From Escherichia phage 121Q: a stretch of 64,000 nucleotides of DNA. Shown here one piece after another: positions 7,401-61,837 of this stretch. Both the position numbers and the translations under genes were made by a program. The stretch's first letter is position 1. Every line of letters begins with the position of its first letter. The stretch is taken from sequence record NC_025447.1, one strand, 5' to 3'. Under the pieces are notes generated by a model. The model saw only the letters and a program-made list of their open reading frames with translations, made no database searches and was not told the DNA's origin.

Positions 7401-7821
7401 TAGAGTACAGGAATGTTCACGTTTAATCAAGAACGTAGCAGTACTGATATGCCACTAAGTAGGCAGAGGAAGTCTGCCGTACTTTGTAGTTTCCAAGCTC
7501 CTTTTCCATTTTGCAAATTACATCAAATGTAATCAAAAGTAATCACGCAATGATTAGTACTGAATTATTACTTTCACCTTAATTTCAATTACCCCTTTAC
7601 CCTTCGGGGTAAAATTCAATTACCCCTTGAGGCTCCAGCAAAAAGTTGGTTAGTACTCCATCCTAAATCTCGATCCTAAAAATTTTGGAGTACCTATGAA
7701 ATAAAAGTTGGATCTTCGAAAGTTGAAATTTACGTTGGGACATATAGGATTTGTGGGATATAATGAGTTTTGTAGCGATACAGATTATACGATTTCAGTA
7801 CTGAATAATGAAAGAAAGCTA

Positions 7822-8800: not shown

Positions 8801-8893
8801 AATTATACGCTTTTTTAGTACTGAGTCAATAGCTAAAAACAAAATAATTGAAAATAATTTAACGCGTTTAAACGGCCCGTAAAGCCCTGGTTA

Positions 8894-10555: not shown

Positions 10556-10584
10556 TTGACTTATTTTGTCAGTACTGGCATAAT
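10556..10584 (+). promoter_or_regulatory. promoter (rightward) of convergent pair flanking box element
   Basis: TTGACT, 17-nt spacer containing CAGTACTGG, CATAAT. Confidence 0.5.
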
Positions 10585-10607
10585 GTATCTATTGAAACGA
10601 ACAATTT

Positions 10608-10683
10608 GGCCCACGGGGTGCGGGAGTGTATCTATAGAAAAAGTAGTTTATTACAGTTACAATTGTGCACCCGGTGGGTTAGC
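10608..10683. repeat. Inverted pair of the 'CCCACNGGGTGC' box (candidate small structured RNA)
   Basis: ggcccacggggtgcgggagtgtatctatag ... tgtgcacccggtgggttagc: ~12-bp imperfect arms around a ~45-nt loop. Confidence 0.45.
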
Positions 10684-10699
10684 TGTTGTCATGGGGTAT

Positions 10700-10728
10700 A
10701 TTATGCCAGTACTTGATAATGCTGTCAA
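10700..10728 (-). promoter_or_regulatory. promoter (leftward) of convergent pair
   Basis: Minus strand reads TTGACA, 17-nt spacer, CATAAT (plus strand attatg...tgtcaa). Confidence 0.5.
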
Positions 10729-12818: not shown

Positions 12819-12850
12819 ATCTATGCACCCTGTGGGTTAGTGACTATCTC
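12819..12850 (-). repeat. 'CCCACAGGGTGCA' box element, minus orientation, downstream of minus-strand promoter
   Basis: Plus strand atctatgcaccctgtgggttagtgactatctc is the reverse complement of the box seen at 16977. Confidence 0.5.
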
Positions 12851-14227: not shown

Positions 14228-14255
14228 TTGCACGATTCAGAGATTAGCGTATAAT
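14228..14255 (+). promoter_or_regulatory. early-type promoter
   Basis: TTGCAC, 16-nt spacer, TATAAT. Confidence 0.55.
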
Positions 14256-14300: not shown

Positions 14301-14453
14301 ATGAATACTTATGAACTGGATTGTTTCACGTTACAAGTAATGTCAGTATGCAGCAAGAAAGATTGGTCATCAAAGGAATTTAAAGCAGTTATTGCGTGTG
14401 CAAAACACGGCAAGACTATCAATGAAACGGCATCAATCATTGATAAACTTTAA
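14301..14453 (+). CDS. hypothetical small protein (50 aa; below ORF-track cutoff)
   Basis: SD CTGAGGAT then ATG 14301; MNTYELDCFTLQVMSV... Confidence 0.5.
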   Translation: MNTYELDCFTLQVMSVCSKKDWSSKEFKAVIACAKHGKTINETASIIDKL

Positions 14454-14750: not shown

Positions 14751-14766
14751 AAAGTACTTGCAAAGT

Positions 14767-14794
14767 AAATCGGATAAAGTATAATACATTACAT
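14767..14794 (+). promoter_or_regulatory. early-type promoter with leader hairpin
   Basis: TTGCAA, 16-nt spacer, TATAAT; hairpin GGGGAGAA-ATGA-TTCTCCCC 14807-14826. Confidence 0.6.
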
Positions 14795-14835: not shown

Positions 14836-14979
14836 ATGAAAACTTGTCAATGTGGTAAAAAATCTATCACTGGTTTGAAACGGGGCGTTGCTCTTTGTCA
14901 GTATCACTATAACGCTCAAGTATGGGGTAAAGAGTGGGCAGACCAGGTGGAAGCTGTAAAGAAAGCAAAAAGTAAGTAA
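14836..14979 (+). CDS. small Cys-containing protein (47 aa; possible zinc ribbon)
   Basis: SD AAGAGGAAA then ATG 14836; MKTCQCGKKSITGLKRGVALCQYHY; the ORF-track minus-strand ORF 14830-15039 is judged antisense noise. Confidence 0.5.
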   Translation: MKTCQCGKKSITGLKRGVALCQYHYNAQVWGKEWADQVEAVKKAKSK

Positions 14980-16261: not shown

Positions 16262-16471
16262 ATGCTTACTGTACAGGATAAGATCGACATCTTAAAGGTT
16301 AATATGTATGTGATTGATGCAGATCCTGAAAAAGTATTTGCATACGATGATTCTAATCGTAGTCCTTTTTATTGTAGTCATGTAGTTGGATACGTGCCGT
16401 TAGGGTATGTTATCGAAAGAGTGGTTGATGAAGCATACAAACATTTTTTAGAAAATAATACTTGCAATTAG
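16262..16471 (+). CDS. hypothetical protein (69 aa)
   Basis: Start trimmed from 16148 to ATG 16262 (MLTVQDKIDIL), directly after the stop of the upstream ORF. Confidence 0.5.
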   Translation: MLTVQDKIDILKVNMYVIDADPEKVFAYDDSNRSPFYCSHVVGYVPLGYVIERVVDEAYKHFLENNTCN

Positions 16472-16489
16472 TTTTCAGTACTGTATAAT
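16462..16489 (+). promoter_or_regulatory. early-type promoter with leader hairpin
   Basis: TTGCAA, 16-nt spacer, TATAAT; hairpin GGGGGGAATGGTTCTCCCC 16502-16520. Confidence 0.6.
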
Positions 16490-16538
16490 TGTTTACATAG
16501 AGGGGGGAATGGTTCTCCCCGATACTAGGAGAATCAAA

Positions 16539-16691
16539 ATGAAACAATACAACGCTCGGTTTGATGTTACTATCGGCAACGGCAAAGGTCAATTTTCTTT
16601 CAGTACTCGTAGGAGTTATACAGAAAACTTCCTGCGTAATTGTGCACTGACCGCCGCACAAATTAAACATTACTTTCAGGCTAAAAAATGA
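16539..16691 (+). CDS. hypothetical small protein (50 aa)
   Basis: Start trimmed to ATG 16539 after SD TAGGAGAA. Confidence 0.6.
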   Translation: MKQYNARFDVTIGNGKGQFSFSTRRSYTENFLRNCALTAAQIKHYFQAKK

Positions 16692-16777
16692 AATCATTGG
16701 CTTATTACAGTTCGGCCCTGGTCGGTGCATTGATCGCGGCATTGTTAGTAACTTATCTATTCTTTATGGTGATTTAA
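16688..16777 (+). CDS. 29-aa hydrophobic peptide (single predicted TM helix)
   Basis: ATGA overlap with upstream stop; MKSLAYYSSALVGALIAALLVTYLFFMVI. Confidence 0.4.
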   Translation: MKSLAYYSSALVGALIAALLVTYLFFMVI

Positions 16778-16915
16778 ATGAATCCTAACGGTTTAATTTA
16801 CAGTACTCCTAAAACGAAAGCAGATAAAGCGAAAGCACGTAAAGCGAAAGTAAAGCAGTACATCAAGCAAGGCATGACACGCAAAGCGGCATTGCTTAAA
16901 GCTAAAAATAAATGA
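16778..16915 (+). CDS. 45-aa lysine-rich basic peptide
   Basis: TAAATG junction with upstream peptide; MNPNGLIYSTPKTKADKAKARKAKVKQYIKQG... Confidence 0.4.
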   Translation: MNPNGLIYSTPKTKADKAKARKAKVKQYIKQGMTRKAALLKAKNK

Positions 16916-16924
16916 AAAAAGTGG

Positions 16925-16953
16925 TTGACTTCGGTCAGCCATTTTGCTATTAT
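16925..16953 (+). promoter_or_regulatory. promoter with embedded inverted repeat, driving the box element
   Basis: TTGACT, 17-nt spacer (tcggtcagccattttgc), TATTAT. Confidence 0.5.
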
Positions 16954-16976
16954 ATATTCATTGAGAGATAGCTCAC

Positions 16977-17007
16977 TAGCCCACAGGGTGCAGGAGTGTA
17001 TCTATTG
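16977..17007 (+). repeat. 'CCCACAGGGTGCA...GTATCTAT' box element
   Basis: tagcccacagggtgcaggagtgtatctattg; family also at 10608, 12819(-), 18658, 20666, 23969, 25888. Confidence 0.55.
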
Positions 17008-17057
17008 TATAATGATTGAGTACTGAAAACTATTTTAAAGTATTTGATAAAAAGTAC

Positions 17058-17085
17058 TTGCAAACTATCTCAATGAGCGTATAAT
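17058..17085 (+). promoter_or_regulatory. early-type promoter with leader hairpin
   Basis: TTGCAA, 16-nt spacer, TATAAT; hairpin GGAAACGGTTTCC ~17102-17114. Confidence 0.6.
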
Positions 17086-17138
17086 GTTTTATATCGCAAG
17101 GGGAAACGGTTTCCTCTCCAAATAAAAGGAATACCAAA

Positions 17139-17477
17139 ATGATCTCTATCGCTCAATCTAACTTTGAAAACGAAATCATCGCTCAGGCACTGCGTTTAAA
17201 TGATGGTCGGGCCGAAATCAATTACGGTTTCAATAGTGGTGGATGTGAAAAATATCAGTACTTTGTAACGGCTGATGGCTGTGTCCTGGGTATCAATACA
17301 GTTATTGTAAACATTCAGAAAATTAATTTCAATGATCCAGACGATAGCCAGTTTTACATCACGGGCGTAGACGTGAACTATGAGGATGACTCACTAACTG
17401 ATGATCACACTGGCGAGAAGTTAGAAAGTGCATACGGTGAAGATGATTATCAGTCAGTACCAGAAGATTTTGAATAA
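17139..17477 (+). CDS. hypothetical acidic protein (112 aa)
   Basis: SD AAAAGGAAT; ATG 17139. Confidence 0.65.
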   Translation: MISIAQSNFENEIIAQALRLNDGRAEINYGFNSGGCEKYQYFVTADGCVLGINTVIVNIQKINFNDPDDSQFYITGVDVNYEDDSLTDDHTGEKLESAYGEDDYQSVPEDFE

Positions 17478-18083: not shown

Positions 18084-18111
18084 TTGACAATGTTTGATAG
18101 TACTGTATAAT
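18084..18111 (+). promoter_or_regulatory. early-type promoter
   Basis: TTGACA, 16-nt spacer, TATAAT. Confidence 0.55.
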
Positions 18112-18155: not shown

Positions 18156-18299
18156 ATGACAGCATTAGATTCATTCATCGACGCAGTACTGGCAAAAACT
18201 GGCGAGGATCTGACCGCAGAACAATACGCGATGATCGAACAATGTCAGCAAGACGGTAAATCGGTGAAAGATACTGTTAAGATTATCCGCAAGATGTAA
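18156..18299 (+). CDS. hypothetical small protein (47 aa)
   Basis: SD TAAGAGAGAAAAA then ATG 18156; MTALDSFIDAVLAKTGEDL...; followed by terminator. Confidence 0.5.
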   Translation: MTALDSFIDAVLAKTGEDLTAEQYAMIEQCQQDGKSVKDTVKIIRKM

Positions 18300-18305
18300 G
18301 ATTAT

Positions 18306-18337
18306 AGCCCACTGGTTAACGCTGGTGGGCTTTAATC
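18306..18337 (+). terminator. terminator-like hairpin containing a Chi octamer
   Basis: AGCCCAC..GTGGGCT stem, then TTTAATC (weak U-tract). Confidence 0.45.
18321..18328 (+). other. Chi octamer GCTGGTGG
   Basis: Exact match inside hairpin loop/arm. Confidence 0.6.
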
Positions 18338-19885: not shown

Positions 19886-19913
19886 TTGACAAAGCATTGT
19901 AGTACTGTATAAT
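19886..19913 (+). promoter_or_regulatory. early-type promoter with leader hairpin
   Basis: TTGACA, 16-nt spacer, TATAAT; hairpin 19926-19945. Confidence 0.65.
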
Positions 19914-19962
19914 AGTTTACATGAAGGGGAGAAATGATTCTCCCCACTAAGAGGAAAGAAAC

Positions 19963-20175
19963 ATGCAAGGTCAACTAATCGTTCGTAAATGGTCTGATAC
20001 TAACGAAAAACCGTGGGATGTTCAATATATCGGACCGGACGGTGTTTCACGTTATCAACCTGGCGTAACGCATAGTACTGAGCAATATGCCGCCGCTCAC
20101 CGCGAACGCCTGTTAGAATCTATGAAACAGGGATTCTGTGAAAAATTCATTCAAGATCATTGGCTGAAAGATTAA
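19963..20175 (+). CDS. hypothetical protein (70 aa)
   Basis: SD AAGAGGAAAGAA; ATG 19963. Confidence 0.65.
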   Translation: MQGQLIVRKWSDTNEKPWDVQYIGPDGVSRYQPGVTHSTEQYAAAHRERLLESMKQGFCEKFIQDHWLKD

Positions 20176-20194
20176 TATATAAGGAGTACAGCTT

Positions 20195-20287
20195 ATGCAA
20201 ATGAATCCGATGATTGTTGTGTTAGCTGTACTTATGATCATTCATGCCATCGTAGAAGTACTAACACAATCAGGAGTAATACAATGA
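20195..20287 (+). CDS. 30-aa hydrophobic peptide
   Basis: SD AAGGAG then ATG 20195; MQMNPMIVVLAVLMIIHAIVEVL...; ATGA overlap with next ORF. Confidence 0.4.
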   Translation: MQMNPMIVVLAVLMIIHAIVEVLTQSGVIQ

Positions 20288-20454
20288 TCCAAGTAGAATT
20301 ATCAGTACTGAAAGATCTGTTTTATCGGTTAGGCACTACTGGCGAATACCCTAAAGGGGATACTGCTAAACTATACATTGCATTGGATGTATGGCAACGT
20401 AATGAACTGGCTAACGCCTGGCGTAAAGGTAAATCAGAGGGGATTGCAGCATGA
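20284..20454 (+). CDS. hypothetical small protein (56 aa)
   Basis: Coupled start; MIQVELSVLKDLFYRLG... Confidence 0.4.
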   Translation: MIQVELSVLKDLFYRLGTTGEYPKGDTAKLYIALDVWQRNELANAWRKGKSEGIAA

Positions 20455-20600
20455 AAGAATTTTTATTCGAAGTAGTGTTCCAGGGCGTAGGAAGTAACCA
20501 ACTGATTCGATCAAGTGGTTACAATGTTAACCAGGCATGGAATAACATTAAACAAATGTACCCGAACGCTATCACATATCGCAACCCAAAACAAGTTTAA
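20451..20600 (+). CDS. hypothetical small protein (49 aa)
   Basis: ATGA coupling; MKEFLFEVVFQGVGSNQLIRS... Confidence 0.4.
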   Translation: MKEFLFEVVFQGVGSNQLIRSSGYNVNQAWNNIKQMYPNAITYRNPKQV

Positions 20601-20618
20601 AAAGAATAAAAAAAGGGA

Positions 20619-20647
20619 TTGACTCCGGTCAGTCCCTTTGCTATTAT
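20619..20647 (+). promoter_or_regulatory. promoter with embedded inverted repeat, driving box element
   Basis: TTGACT, 17-nt spacer (ccggtcagtccctttgc), TATTAT. Confidence 0.5.
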
Positions 20648-20665
20648 ATACGCATAGACAAAAAC

Positions 20666-20696
20666 TAGCCCACAGGGTGCATAAATGTATCTATTA
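20666..20696 (+). repeat. 'CCCACAGGGTGCA' box element
   Basis: tagcccacagggtgcataaatgtatctattat. Confidence 0.55.
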
Positions 20697-20699
20697 TAT

Positions 20700-20707
20700 G
20701 CTGGTGG
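20700..20707 (+). other. Chi octamer GCTGGTGG
   Basis: Exact match, intergenic, directly 3' of box element. Confidence 0.6.
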
Positions 20708-20747
20708 CTAGTACTATCAAGTACTGAAAACTATTTTTAAAAAGTAC

Positions 20748-23313: not shown

Positions 23314-23898
23314 ATGCGTAACTATACTAAATTCATCCGTTCACTTCATGCAATGGAAACCAACAAAGAGATCCTTTCAGCTTGTCGGTTAGCTGGACTG
23401 GAGATCGTCGGTGCGGGTTCTTCCCGTATTGTATTCGCTTTAAATGATCGGTTAGTGATTAAGGTCGCGAATTGTGATGCGGGTGTAGAACAAAATGAAA
23501 CTGAATGTAAGGTATGGAATTTTTTAGATTATGACCGTCCGCACCTTAAACAGTTCTTTGCCAAGGTGCATATGCATTTATGCGATCCTGATAATCTGCT
23601 TATTGTTATGGATCGTTTGAGTACTGCAAGCAAAGGCAGTGTAAAGCACGTAACCGCATGTAATGAGTTAAAGTACAATATTAAACGTAACACTATTGAA
23701 CGCCATCACCATTTCGCTGATGCTCTCAATCACGTTGATGATACATTATCCACACTAACGATAAGAGATATCAGAAAACAGAATATCGGCCAGGATCGCA
23801 ACGGCTTGATTAAAGTACTTGATTACGGTTTAACCCGCAATATCTGGAATCAGTACTATAAAAAACGTGATGTTAACGCGATAACTATAACACGATAA
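23314..23898 (+). CDS. putative protein-kinase-like protein (194 aa)
   Basis: Motif order resembles a kinase core: Gly-rich loop GAGSSRIVF, lysine in LVIKVAN, catalytic-loop-like RDIRKQNIG, DFG-like DYG; start trimmed to ATG 23314 after SD CAAGGAGT. Confidence 0.4.
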   Translation: MRNYTKFIRSLHAMETNKEILSACRLAGLEIVGAGSSRIVFALNDRLVIKVANCDAGVEQNETECKVWNFLDYDRPHLKQFFAKVHMHLCDPDNLLIVMDRLSTASKGSVKHVTACNELKYNIKRNTIERHHHFADALNHVDDTLSTLTIRDIRKQNIGQDRNGLIKVLDYGLTRNIWNQYYKKRDVNAITITR

Positions 23899-23916: not shown

Positions 23917-23945
23917 TTGACTCCAGTCAGTCCCTTTGCTATTAT
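23917..23945 (+). promoter_or_regulatory. promoter with embedded inverted repeat, driving box element
   Basis: TTGACT, 17-nt spacer, TATTAT. Confidence 0.5.
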
Positions 23946-23968
23946 ATATTCATTGAGAGATAACTCAC

Positions 23969-24000
23969 TGACCCATAGGGTGCGGAAGTGTATCTATTAT
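23969..24000 (+). repeat. 'CCCATAGGGTGCG' box element
   Basis: tgacccatagggtgcggaagtgtatctattat. Confidence 0.55.
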
Positions 24001-24039
24001 ATAAGTATTCAGTACTGAAAACTATTTTATAAAAAGTAC

Positions 24040-61702: not shown

Positions 61703-61705
61703 GTA

Positions 61706-61837
61706 TGGCTAAGAAAGTAAACAATTTCGTACAGAAACACATGAATGAGTTTAACAAGCCTCAGACACATGTGGATCGTAAAAAAGAAATGAAAAATGGT
61801 AAAGTAAAACACAAGTCGAGATTTATTCTCGACTAAT
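61706..61837 (+). CDS. small basic protein (43 aa; below ORF-track cutoff)
   Basis: SD GGAGTAAGT then ATG 61706; MAKKVNNFVQKHMNEFNKPQTHVDRKKEMKNGKVKHK... Confidence 0.45.

Follow-up and report, generated by a model that had tools for sequence, protein, structure and literature searches.

Two groups of very small open reading frames (ORFs), at 16539-16915 and 20195-20600, are the subject of this report; both lie in a 64,000-nucleotide stretch of Escherichia phage 121Q (NC_025447.1; one strand, 5' to 3'), which we refer to as the window. A preliminary description of this DNA had presented both groups as tightly coupled micro-operons that include hydrophobic and lysine-rich peptides, and had named four further short ORFs as promoter-served genes. 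Reading of the sequence confirmed the first group as described, in its coordinates, its ATGA and TAAATG junctions and the hydrophobic and lysine-rich character of its second and third products. The unit to which these three genes belong, denoted operon 1, contains the following features.

16462..16489, + strand: putative sigma-70-type promoter of operon 1, TTGCAA-16-TATAAT, with an A-rich upstream tract (promoter scan, 10/12 matches)
16502..16520, + strand: 5' leader hairpin, GGGGGGAA-TGG-TTCTCCCC (RNA fold, -12.3 kcal/mol centroid)
16539..16691, + strand: A50, a 50-amino-acid basic protein and first cistron of operon 1 (AGGAG 7 nt upstream; phrog_7119, E = 7e-28)
16688..16777, + strand: B29, a predicted 29-amino-acid single-pass membrane peptide, overlapping A50 by ATGA (selection test and hydropathy)
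16778..16915, + strand: C45, a 45-amino-acid lysine-rich protein with a TAAATG junction to B29 (phrog_29913, E = 2.5e-32)
16918..16945, + strand: terminator-like hairpin ending operon 1, 12-bp stem (-15.9 kcal/mol, z-score -4.8; terminator scan)

The first trio is thus a self-contained unit with its own promoter, leader hairpin, three cistrons and closing hairpin. It ends, as had been proposed, at a combined promoter and terminator module: the stem of the hairpin at 16918-16945 holds the -35 box (TTGACT) of the next promoter, the -10 box of which (TATTAT) lies at 16948-16953, and the homologous site in the G17 record is annotated as an ARNold terminator. An in-frame ATG at 16509 was discarded as the start of A50, since it sits in the loop of the leader hairpin and has no Shine-Dalgarno (SD) sequence; the equivalent loop ATG behind the operon 2 promoter at 19886 is out of frame with its gene, the remaining leader copies have no ATG at this position, and the relatives that annotate A50 give the 153-nt version throughout, except PBECO4 (132 nt). 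For A50, AlphaFold2 gave a low-confidence prediction (predicted local distance difference test, pLDDT, 66) of a beta-hairpin and a helix. B29 (MKSLAYYSSALVGALIAALLVTYLFFMVI) was found in 33 Asteriusvirus records at 90-100% amino acid identity, and C45 in 31 records. The latter has 14 lysine and arginine residues among its 45 and an isoelectric point of 10.8, and its AlphaFold2 model (pLDDT 80) consists of a helix at residues 14-30, a turn and a helix at residues 35-43, with no match in the PDB by Foldseek; on this model the product is a strongly basic helical hairpin, which probably binds a nucleic acid or an acidic partner. B29 and C45 share a reading frame, and the single TAA separating them is invariant across relatives; read-through of this codon would yield a 75-amino-acid basic protein with a transmembrane (TM) anchor, and there is no sign that it happens.

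The second group, which had been taken for a similar trio, has the ORFs and ATGA junctions ascribed to it and belongs to a larger unit, denoted operon 2.

19886..19913, + strand: perfect consensus sigma-70 promoter of operon 2, TTGACA-16-TATAAT (12/12 matches)
19926..19945, + strand: 5' leader hairpin of operon 2, GGGGAGAA-ATGA-TTCTCCCC (-13.9 kcal/mol, z-score -2.7)
19963..20175, + strand: 70-amino-acid gene, the true first cistron of operon 2 (ratio of nonsynonymous to synonymous polymorphism, pN/pS, 0.15)
20184..20233, + strand: possible hairpin in which the SD and start region of D30 (GAGUACAGCU) pairs with codons 11-14 (AGCUGUACUU) (10-bp stem, weak support)
20195..20287, + strand: D30, a predicted 30-amino-acid single-pass membrane peptide with its own strong SD sequence, AAGGAG, at 8-nt spacing (selection test and hydropathy)
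20284..20454, + strand: E56, a 56-amino-acid protein, overlapping D30 by ATGA (phrog_10572, E = 3e-28)
20451..20600, + strand: F49, a 49-amino-acid protein, overlapping E56 by ATGA (phrog_37188, E = 4e-40)
20612..20639, + strand: terminator-like hairpin ending operon 2, with a TTGACT -35 box within its stem (-19.9 kcal/mol, z-score -6.0; scan)

This trio does not stand alone. It begins 19 nt after the stop codon of the 70-amino-acid gene, and the promoter scan found no promoter at 20175-20195; therefore, D30, E56 and F49 are cistrons 2-4 of a four-gene operon that extends from the promoter at 19886 to the hairpin at 20612-20639. D30 was found in 18 records at 90-100% identity and is annotated as G17_00022 and 121Q_298, and an exhaustive HMMER search of 1.84 billion representative proteins, which has low sensitivity at 30 amino acids, matched its own cluster alone. 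Turkey5 and A4 encode a 29-amino-acid variant with approximately 50% identity (MHMNPFIVVIAIMMAVQAVLEYLSKAGVI), preceded by its own promoter, leader hairpin and SD sequence. The diverged variant keeps the length, the hydrophobic core (Kyte-Doolittle mean of 2.31 in Turkey5) and the polar residues at positions 17 (H/Q) and 21 (E), and this retention suggests the pattern expected of a functional TM helix with a polar face. The possible hairpin over the D30 start is not significant (the minimum free energy fold of 20176-20300 has a z-score of -1.66, and 13 of 200 shuffled sequences were equally stable); PBECO4, G17 and UB retain its complementary segments. A membrane topology check of the 29- and 30-amino-acid products gave 18-residue hydrophobic cores with Kyte-Doolittle means of 2.6-2.8 (2.63 for residues 12-29 of B29 and 2.84 for residues 6-23 of D30); at least 18 residues with a mean above 1.6 was the threshold used to predict a single-pass peptide, and neither product contains a lipobox or cleavage motif.

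The coding status of the mini-ORFs was examined at homologous loci of 15 relatives (L001-L015) and of two relatives with diverged variants (L016 and L017). Pooled Nei-Gojobori pN/pS was calculated in three frames for all + strand ORFs of at least 25 amino acids between 13.5 and 21.5 kb, and an excess of synonymous variants was sought with a site-wise binomial test. Nine ORFs were tested, namely those of the two trios and three of the further short ORFs, which begin at 14301, 14836 and 18156. The pN/pS values, with the P values for synonymous excess in parentheses, were 0.11 for A50 (2e-7), 0.25 for B29 (0.031), 0.28 for C45 (1.4e-4), 0.18-0.36 for D30 (0.005), 0.31 for E56 (1e-3), 0.057 for F49 (8e-8), 0.04 for 14301 (3e-3; three homologues only), 0.11 for 14836 (5e-6) and 0.03 for 18156 (2e-6), and the binomial test gave no significant synonymous excess in the other two frames of any of the nine; for B29, pN/pS in these frames was 3.2 and 0.69. 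Genes and non-genes separate on pN/pS together with frame integrity, at 0.03-0.36 for the former versus at least 0.6, or frames broken in relatives, for the latter. The B29 frame is intact in 15 of 15 relatives and that of D30 in seven of seven, and an in-frame 6-nt indel distinguishes two variants of C45 among the relatives. The replacements seen in B29 (K>R, S>T, L>M, T>A, L>V and V>I) are conservative in character, and its metagenomic variants show L>V and V>I plus two synonymous changes. The ORF at 16925-17026, used as a negative control, gave a pN/pS of 3.3, which became 1.04 with two more loci (P = 0.92). RNA structure was rejected as the cause of B29 conservation, as the region has no unusual fold (z-score +0.28), and a + strand hydrophobic ORF at 23531-23620 was rejected as a gene (pN/pS 1.41, intact in none of nine relatives). 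Together, frame-specific purifying selection and frames intact in 15 or more relatives argue that the mini-ORFs are genuine conserved very small protein-coding genes, as had been claimed. The related claim that a 60-amino-acid cut-off undercounts genes also holds, because 12 of the approximately 27 supported genes in the stretch from 13.5 to 21.5 kb encode fewer than 60 amino acids.

The arrangement of the genes is conserved as well. The ATGA junctions at 16688-16691, 20284-20287 and 20451-20454 and the TAAATG junction at 16775-16780 are invariant in sequence wherever both adjoining genes are present (up to 15 relatives), and every ORF of the trios has an SD sequence. Conserved junctions and strong closing hairpins agree with the earlier view of tightly coupled micro-operons, in which the coupling itself would follow from the junctions. 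Such coupling is not obligatory at every junction: E56 is present without D30 in fEgEco12, where it has its own SD sequence, and therefore the D30/E56 junction is not required. In fEgEco12 and WPEC3, which lack D30, a promoter plus stem-loop cassette occupies exactly the place of D30 and directly drives E56; thus, D30 is an independent, dispensable module that is not needed for E56 expression. Other tightly joined pairs (TAAtATG, TAATG or ATGA) occur at 16090-16260/16263-16471, 18786-18932/18932-19189 and 24429-24701/24698-24889, and in or just beyond the terminal repeat described below at 27706-27933/27930-28130 and 28175-28336/28333-28545; the 48-amino-acid ORF of one tight pair is directly upstream of a DksA-like zinc-finger gene. 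These further pairs indicate that coupling is common here and not peculiar to the two trios.

Both trios are located in the direct terminal repeat (DTR) of the genome. The window aligns with Asteriusvirus jumbo coliphages (PBECO4, 121Q, G17, phAPEC6, fEgEco12 and others) at approximately 86-92% nucleotide identity (megablast and blastn), and synteny is interrupted solely by whole-gene insertions and deletions. Position 1 of the fEgEco12 genome aligns at window position 7458, and the DTR is 20,993 bp in fEgEco12, with experimental support (PMC13070987), and 20,668 bp in Sharanji (PMC11895373); therefore, the window from approximately 7.5 to 28 kb represents the DTR. By this alignment, the physical genome end and the whole ~21-kb repeat, from 7458 to approximately 28400, are included in the window, which relative to fEgEco12 has extra gene modules of about 3.2 kb between 7458 and 14000. 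The 'Direct Terminal Repeats' feature annotated in vB_Ec-M-J covers the B29 homologue, and records comprising both repeats contain two copies of it. The repeat coincides with a dense block of consensus promoters: 13 perfect 12/12 sigma-70 matches (TTGACA-N16/17-TATAAT) were counted on the + strand from 7.8 to 25.5 kb, versus one in the remaining window. At least eight promoters of this block are followed by a leader hairpin of the GGGGAGAA...TTCTCCCC type, and the motif of the operon 1 leader recurs behind the promoters at 14758, 17492, 19886, 21132, 21491, 24348 and 25537. A further single-gene difference lies next to A50: in relatives, a 210-nt gene and A50 are separated by a 147-nt gene that has its own promoter (L001 6553-6699), and the window has a single promoter cassette in its place at 16471-16539, which is another single-gene cassette indel.

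The surroundings of A50 were compared beyond this genus. A50 (phrog_7119) has homologues in 180 phage records, among them those of RaK2-like, rV5-like, CR3-like and Eneladus-like phages (42-57% identity). A homologue search with A50 as the query returned three protein clusters; an IMG/VR scan gave no loci with a shallow alignment and nine with a broader one, and a metagenome scan gave five. The downstream neighbourhood of A50 was inspected in 20 loci of other lineages. A metagenomic relative whose A50 is 72% identical (L022 and L023) has a 33-amino-acid ORF (MKKWLMLVLTYSTITITAAVMAVLAVFLFFTLI) starting one base past the A50 stop codon, and this peptide shares 39% identity with B29 over 23 residues, flush to the C-terminus (pairwise E = 2e-4). 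RaK2, RCIP0023 and a metagenomic RaK2-like contig have at this place a 38-amino-acid hydrophobic ORF that overlaps both the upstream stop codon (TAATG or TTGA) and the downstream start codon (ATGA) and has no similarity to B29 or to the other peptides. In EJP2, in Hallingskeid-like phages and contigs (Eneladus-like), and in rV5-like and CR3/phiTE-like phages, A50 is directly followed by a promoter or terminator. From these neighbourhoods, the pairing of A50 with a predicted TM peptide is recurrent and not universal, it may extend to RaK2-like phages, and it is the only part of the present findings that goes beyond routine annotation. A tentative and rather doubtful extension is that A50 and the adjoining membrane mini-peptide form a conserved two-component early effector and, with D30, represent a class of jumbo-phage membrane micro-proteins. 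If the pair were an effector, one possibility would be a soluble factor that is recruited to, or neutralised at, the inner membrane; if such micro-proteins form a class, they might manipulate host envelope physiology or exclude competing phages.

We propose, with a probability of roughly 0.8, that the mini-ORFs are very small immediate-early genes of a host-takeover block in the ~21-kb DTR, encoding accessory effectors that are gained and lost as cassettes. In this model, the host sigma-70 RNA polymerase would start at the near-consensus promoters, and each transcript would open with a G/C-rich leader hairpin, which may stabilise or insulate it, followed by the SD sequence and the first cistron. 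Downstream cistrons would be translated by termination-reinitiation coupling at ATGA, TAAATG or TAATG, and each unit would close at a strong hairpin that also bears the -35 box of the next promoter. B29 and D30 are predicted to insert into the inner membrane as single-pass peptides, and the products of 47-56 amino acids would be small soluble proteins. As accessory early effectors, they would most likely act in host takeover, superinfection exclusion or counter-defence, and recombination between the repeated promoter and stem-loop sequences is a likely route for the gain and loss of single genes.

Several points weigh against this proposal. The immediate-early timing is deduced from promoter type and DTR location, which are its whole basis, and the terminators have short U-tracts. 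The searched papers on this phage group contain no report of expression, ribosome occupancy, peptides or function for these genes. None of the trio proteins has an above-threshold match in NCBIfam, PADLOC or Pfam, and the full-length profile matches to PHROGs 7119, 29913, 10572, 37188 and 34103 (E 7e-28 to 4e-40) are all to families of 'unknown function'; sub-threshold matches to Pfam (SAM_SMF, T3SS_ATPase_C and others) and of C45 to NCBIfam aureocin_A53 fell below the cut-offs and were ignored, and B29 has no NCBIfam hmmscan match. The remaining points concern the two hydrophobic peptides: B29 is statistically the weakest of the genes, with P = 0.031 from 15 variant sites; hydrophobicity comparable to theirs is reached by 7 of 507 six-frame ORFs of 25-60 amino acids (~1.4%) in this AT-rich sequence; and the status of the RaK2-type 38-amino-acid ORF as a gene is ambiguous, as a canonical early promoter overlaps it.

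The last three of these points would also be expected if B29 and D30 were not functional proteins, being spacer or relay frames, or decayed promoter and leader cassettes, that would hand ribosomes on to the next cistron or occupy the intergenic gap and whose peptide sequence is irrelevant. The dispensability of D30, which in fEgEco12 and WPEC3 is replaced by a promoter cassette about as long, and the omission of B29 and D30 by most annotators point in the same direction. We nevertheless consider this explanation improbable, as it is at odds with low pN/pS and a synonymous excess confined to the claimed frame, with the conservative character of the replacements (K>R, S>T, L>M, L>V and V>I), with D30 variants that retain length, TM core and polar positions at ~50% identity, and with the alignment of B29 to the 33-amino-acid peptide that follows the 72%-identical A50. 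Nor is a relay needed in operon 2, where D30 has a strong SD sequence of its own and E56 is served by its own SD sequence with or without D30. That the hydrophobic peptides are membrane depolarisers resembling type I toxins (TisB, DinQ, Hok or Ibs-like) or holin/antiholin-like lysis-timing peptides, restrained by RNA structure or antisense RNA, is very improbable: their size of 29-30 amino acids and single TM helix, the conserved polar residues on one helix face of D30, the possible SD-sequestering hairpin and a weak promoter-like site in antisense orientation at 20397 (minus strand) fit such a role, but no type I toxin or holin was matched in NCBIfam (the sole D30 match there, NF033695 or KPN_01571, a 30-amino-acid transporter-adjacent family, scored 17.4 bits against a cut-off of 35), none was matched in PADLOC, the D30 hairpin lacks significance, antisense promoter-like matches are at background level (50 sites found versus 32.5 expected), and the genes lie in a terminal repeat with early promoters, not beside lysis genes. 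The window has no Rfam match.

The four other short ORFs that had been named as promoter-served are as follows.

14301..14453, + strand: 50-amino-acid gene with its own promoter, -35 box at 14228 and -10 box at 14250 (leader and SD read in sequence)
14836..14979, + strand: 47-amino-acid Cys-rich basic gene with a promoter at 14758-14785 and a leader hairpin (SD; annotated in relatives at 144 nt)
18156..18299, + strand: 47-amino-acid acidic gene, phrog_34103, with a consensus promoter at 18084-18111 and a closing hairpin at 18306-18331 (-23.4 kcal/mol)
61705..61836, + strand: 43-amino-acid basic protein, Pfam DUF7230 and phrog_1359, starting 2 nt after the stop codon of a 157-amino-acid ORF

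The first three indeed have a promoter, a leader and an SD sequence each. The fourth does not fit the claim: its coordinates had been given as 61706-61837, one nucleotide off, it abuts the 157-amino-acid ORF, to which it would be coupled, and it lies outside the promoter-rich block with no promoter of its own. Its residues 3-41 match positions 1-39 of the 42-position DUF7230 profile at 62.4 bits (cut-off 27), and a hairpin with a T-run at 61815-61833 resembles an intrinsic terminator (-10.6 kcal/mol, z-score -4.6); the surroundings are AT-rich and different in character from the terminal repeat. A C-terminal helix-turn-helix-like pattern, (G)[KR][ST][ILV]x[DE][TI]..I..K, is common to the proteins of 47-50 amino acids encoded at 14301-14453, 18156-18299 and L024 1066-1209. 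Paralogy of the 14301 and 18156 proteins, considered because of a common GK[ST][IV]x[DE]T..II.K tail, was dropped, as BLASTP gave no significant alignment.

The sequence that follows operon 1 belongs to a repeated non-coding element (16920-17075), composed of a sigma-70 promoter with an extended -10 box, the -35 box often inside the terminator hairpin, and a core approximately 20-30 nt downstream of the promoter, cTAGCCCAC(N)GGGTGCA..GTATCTAT. Further copies of the core occur on the + strand at 10610, 18664, 20669, 23972 and 25891 and on the - strand at 12836, 10678 and 8557, with a variant near 8829 (-); in the CCC-AYN-GGG part the loop bases vary and the stem is invariant. At 10556-10728, two copies with promoters at 10556 (+) and 10728 (-) converge and overlap, forming an antisense pair. 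The element is the only part of 16400-17140 that is conserved in other genera (RaK2, K64-1, GAP32 and CBB), where it is present in 4-28 copies per genome and is unannotated. It has no Rfam or tRNA match, and it may be a small RNA, a leader element or a protein-binding site. ORFs of 29-33 amino acids run across the element at 16925-17026, 20638-20727 and 23917-24018 with pN/pS of 0.55-3.3, and by this measure they are probably false gene calls. The ORF at 16925-17026 is annotated as a gene in WPEC3, SHEFM2K and SD-15_S21, and homologues of this ORF and of 20638-20727 are listed as WPEC3 CDS038/CDS023 and SHEFM2K M2K_0191/0176. In addition, -10 boxes often read TATAATG (9564, 10802 and 24066) and leader loops often contain ATG (14806 and 16509), creating ORFs (MFYIR... 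and MILP...) able to over-extend gene calls at the N-terminus; such promoter and leader ATGs account for the call of A50 at 60 amino acids in one metagenomic cluster (P0001).

The trio ORFs themselves are not new to the databases. They are already called as hypothetical proteins in fEgEco12 (g021-g023), WPEC3 (CDS039-041), SHEFM2K (M2K_0192-0194 and 0177-0179), G17 (G17_00020-22) and 121Q (121Q_298), at 85-100% identity. Ten of the 15 fetched relatives (JNE01, CRJP21, SP27, UE-S1, UB, PBECO4, G17, Ecwhy_1, BF17 and slurp01) leave B29 unannotated, and no record assigns a function. Gene lists for the Asteriusvirus group are thus inconsistent, and some pipelines call a spurious 33-amino-acid ORF on the non-coding repeat; a frame-specific selection test provides a clean rule for which mini-ORFs to keep. 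Two predicted membrane micro-proteins and several proteins of fewer than 60 amino acids would be added to the early host-takeover repertoire of a jumbo-phage genus that is used therapeutically. With its ORFs already listed as hypothetical proteins in several GenBank records, the finding is one of ordinary phage early-region architecture, and it does not overturn current understanding, because small, coupled, promoter-dense early genes are usual in large virulent phages.

Three known systems bear comparison with these units. Small membrane proteins include the type I toxins TisB, DinQ and Ibs, the regulators AcrZ, MgrB and KdpF, and the T4 exclusion proteins Imm and Sp. B29 and D30 resemble them as predicted single-helix inner-membrane peptides in the range of 20-50 amino acids, with polar residues inside the helix in D30, and they differ in that the NCBIfam and PADLOC searches placed them in no family, that they have no evident antisense RNA partner and that they are encoded in coupled phage operons. 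The closest architectural analogy is provided by the promoter-early stem-loop (PeSL) cassettes of the T4-type phages RB49/phi1, PST and nt-1 (Arbiol et al. 2010, PMC2839356; Comeau et al. 2014, PMC4122927), the defining sequence features and indel link of which are recognisable here. In both, small ORFan genes in a plastic region are flanked by repeated cassettes of ~100 bp, each made up of a near-consensus sigma-70 promoter behind an AT-rich tract, together with a G/C stem-loop, an SD sequence and an ATG, and between close relatives single genes are inserted, deleted or replaced exactly at the cassettes, as seen here in the alternation of D30 with a cassette and the absence of the 147-nt gene. 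The differences are that the lineage here is that of Asteriusvirus and RaK2-like jumbo phages, that the leader hairpin comes after the -10 box and would be transcribed as a 5' mRNA hairpin, unlike in most PeSLs, that a second hairpin type holds the -35 box in its stem, and that several units are coupled operons of two to four genes instead of single ORFans. Cassette-style gain and loss of single tiny genes is thereby seen outside the T4-type phages in which PeSLs were described.

Of the 17 pre-early ORFs encoded in the terminal repeat of T5, 13 can be dispensed with and seven are toxic, and a pre-early protein with two predicted TM domains damages membrane integrity (bioRxiv 10.64898/2026.04.02.716235). 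No sequence homology with T5 was found, and Asteriusvirus is not known to share the two-step DNA injection of T5. At twice the length, the repeat here has roughly double the number of genes (about 35-45 are annotated in the fetched parts of the repeats of relatives) and includes peptides of 29-30 amino acids. The likeness lies in many small genes in a long DTR, which here would also be transcribed by the host sigma-70 RNA polymerase (see also 10.1101/866236), and the T5 pre-early genes encode mostly dispensable accessory functions, several of them toxic and one a membrane protein. The mini-ORFs are located within the terminal repeat, just as T5-like pre-early genes are, and by analogy the T5 terminal repeat is the closest functional counterpart of the early block described here.

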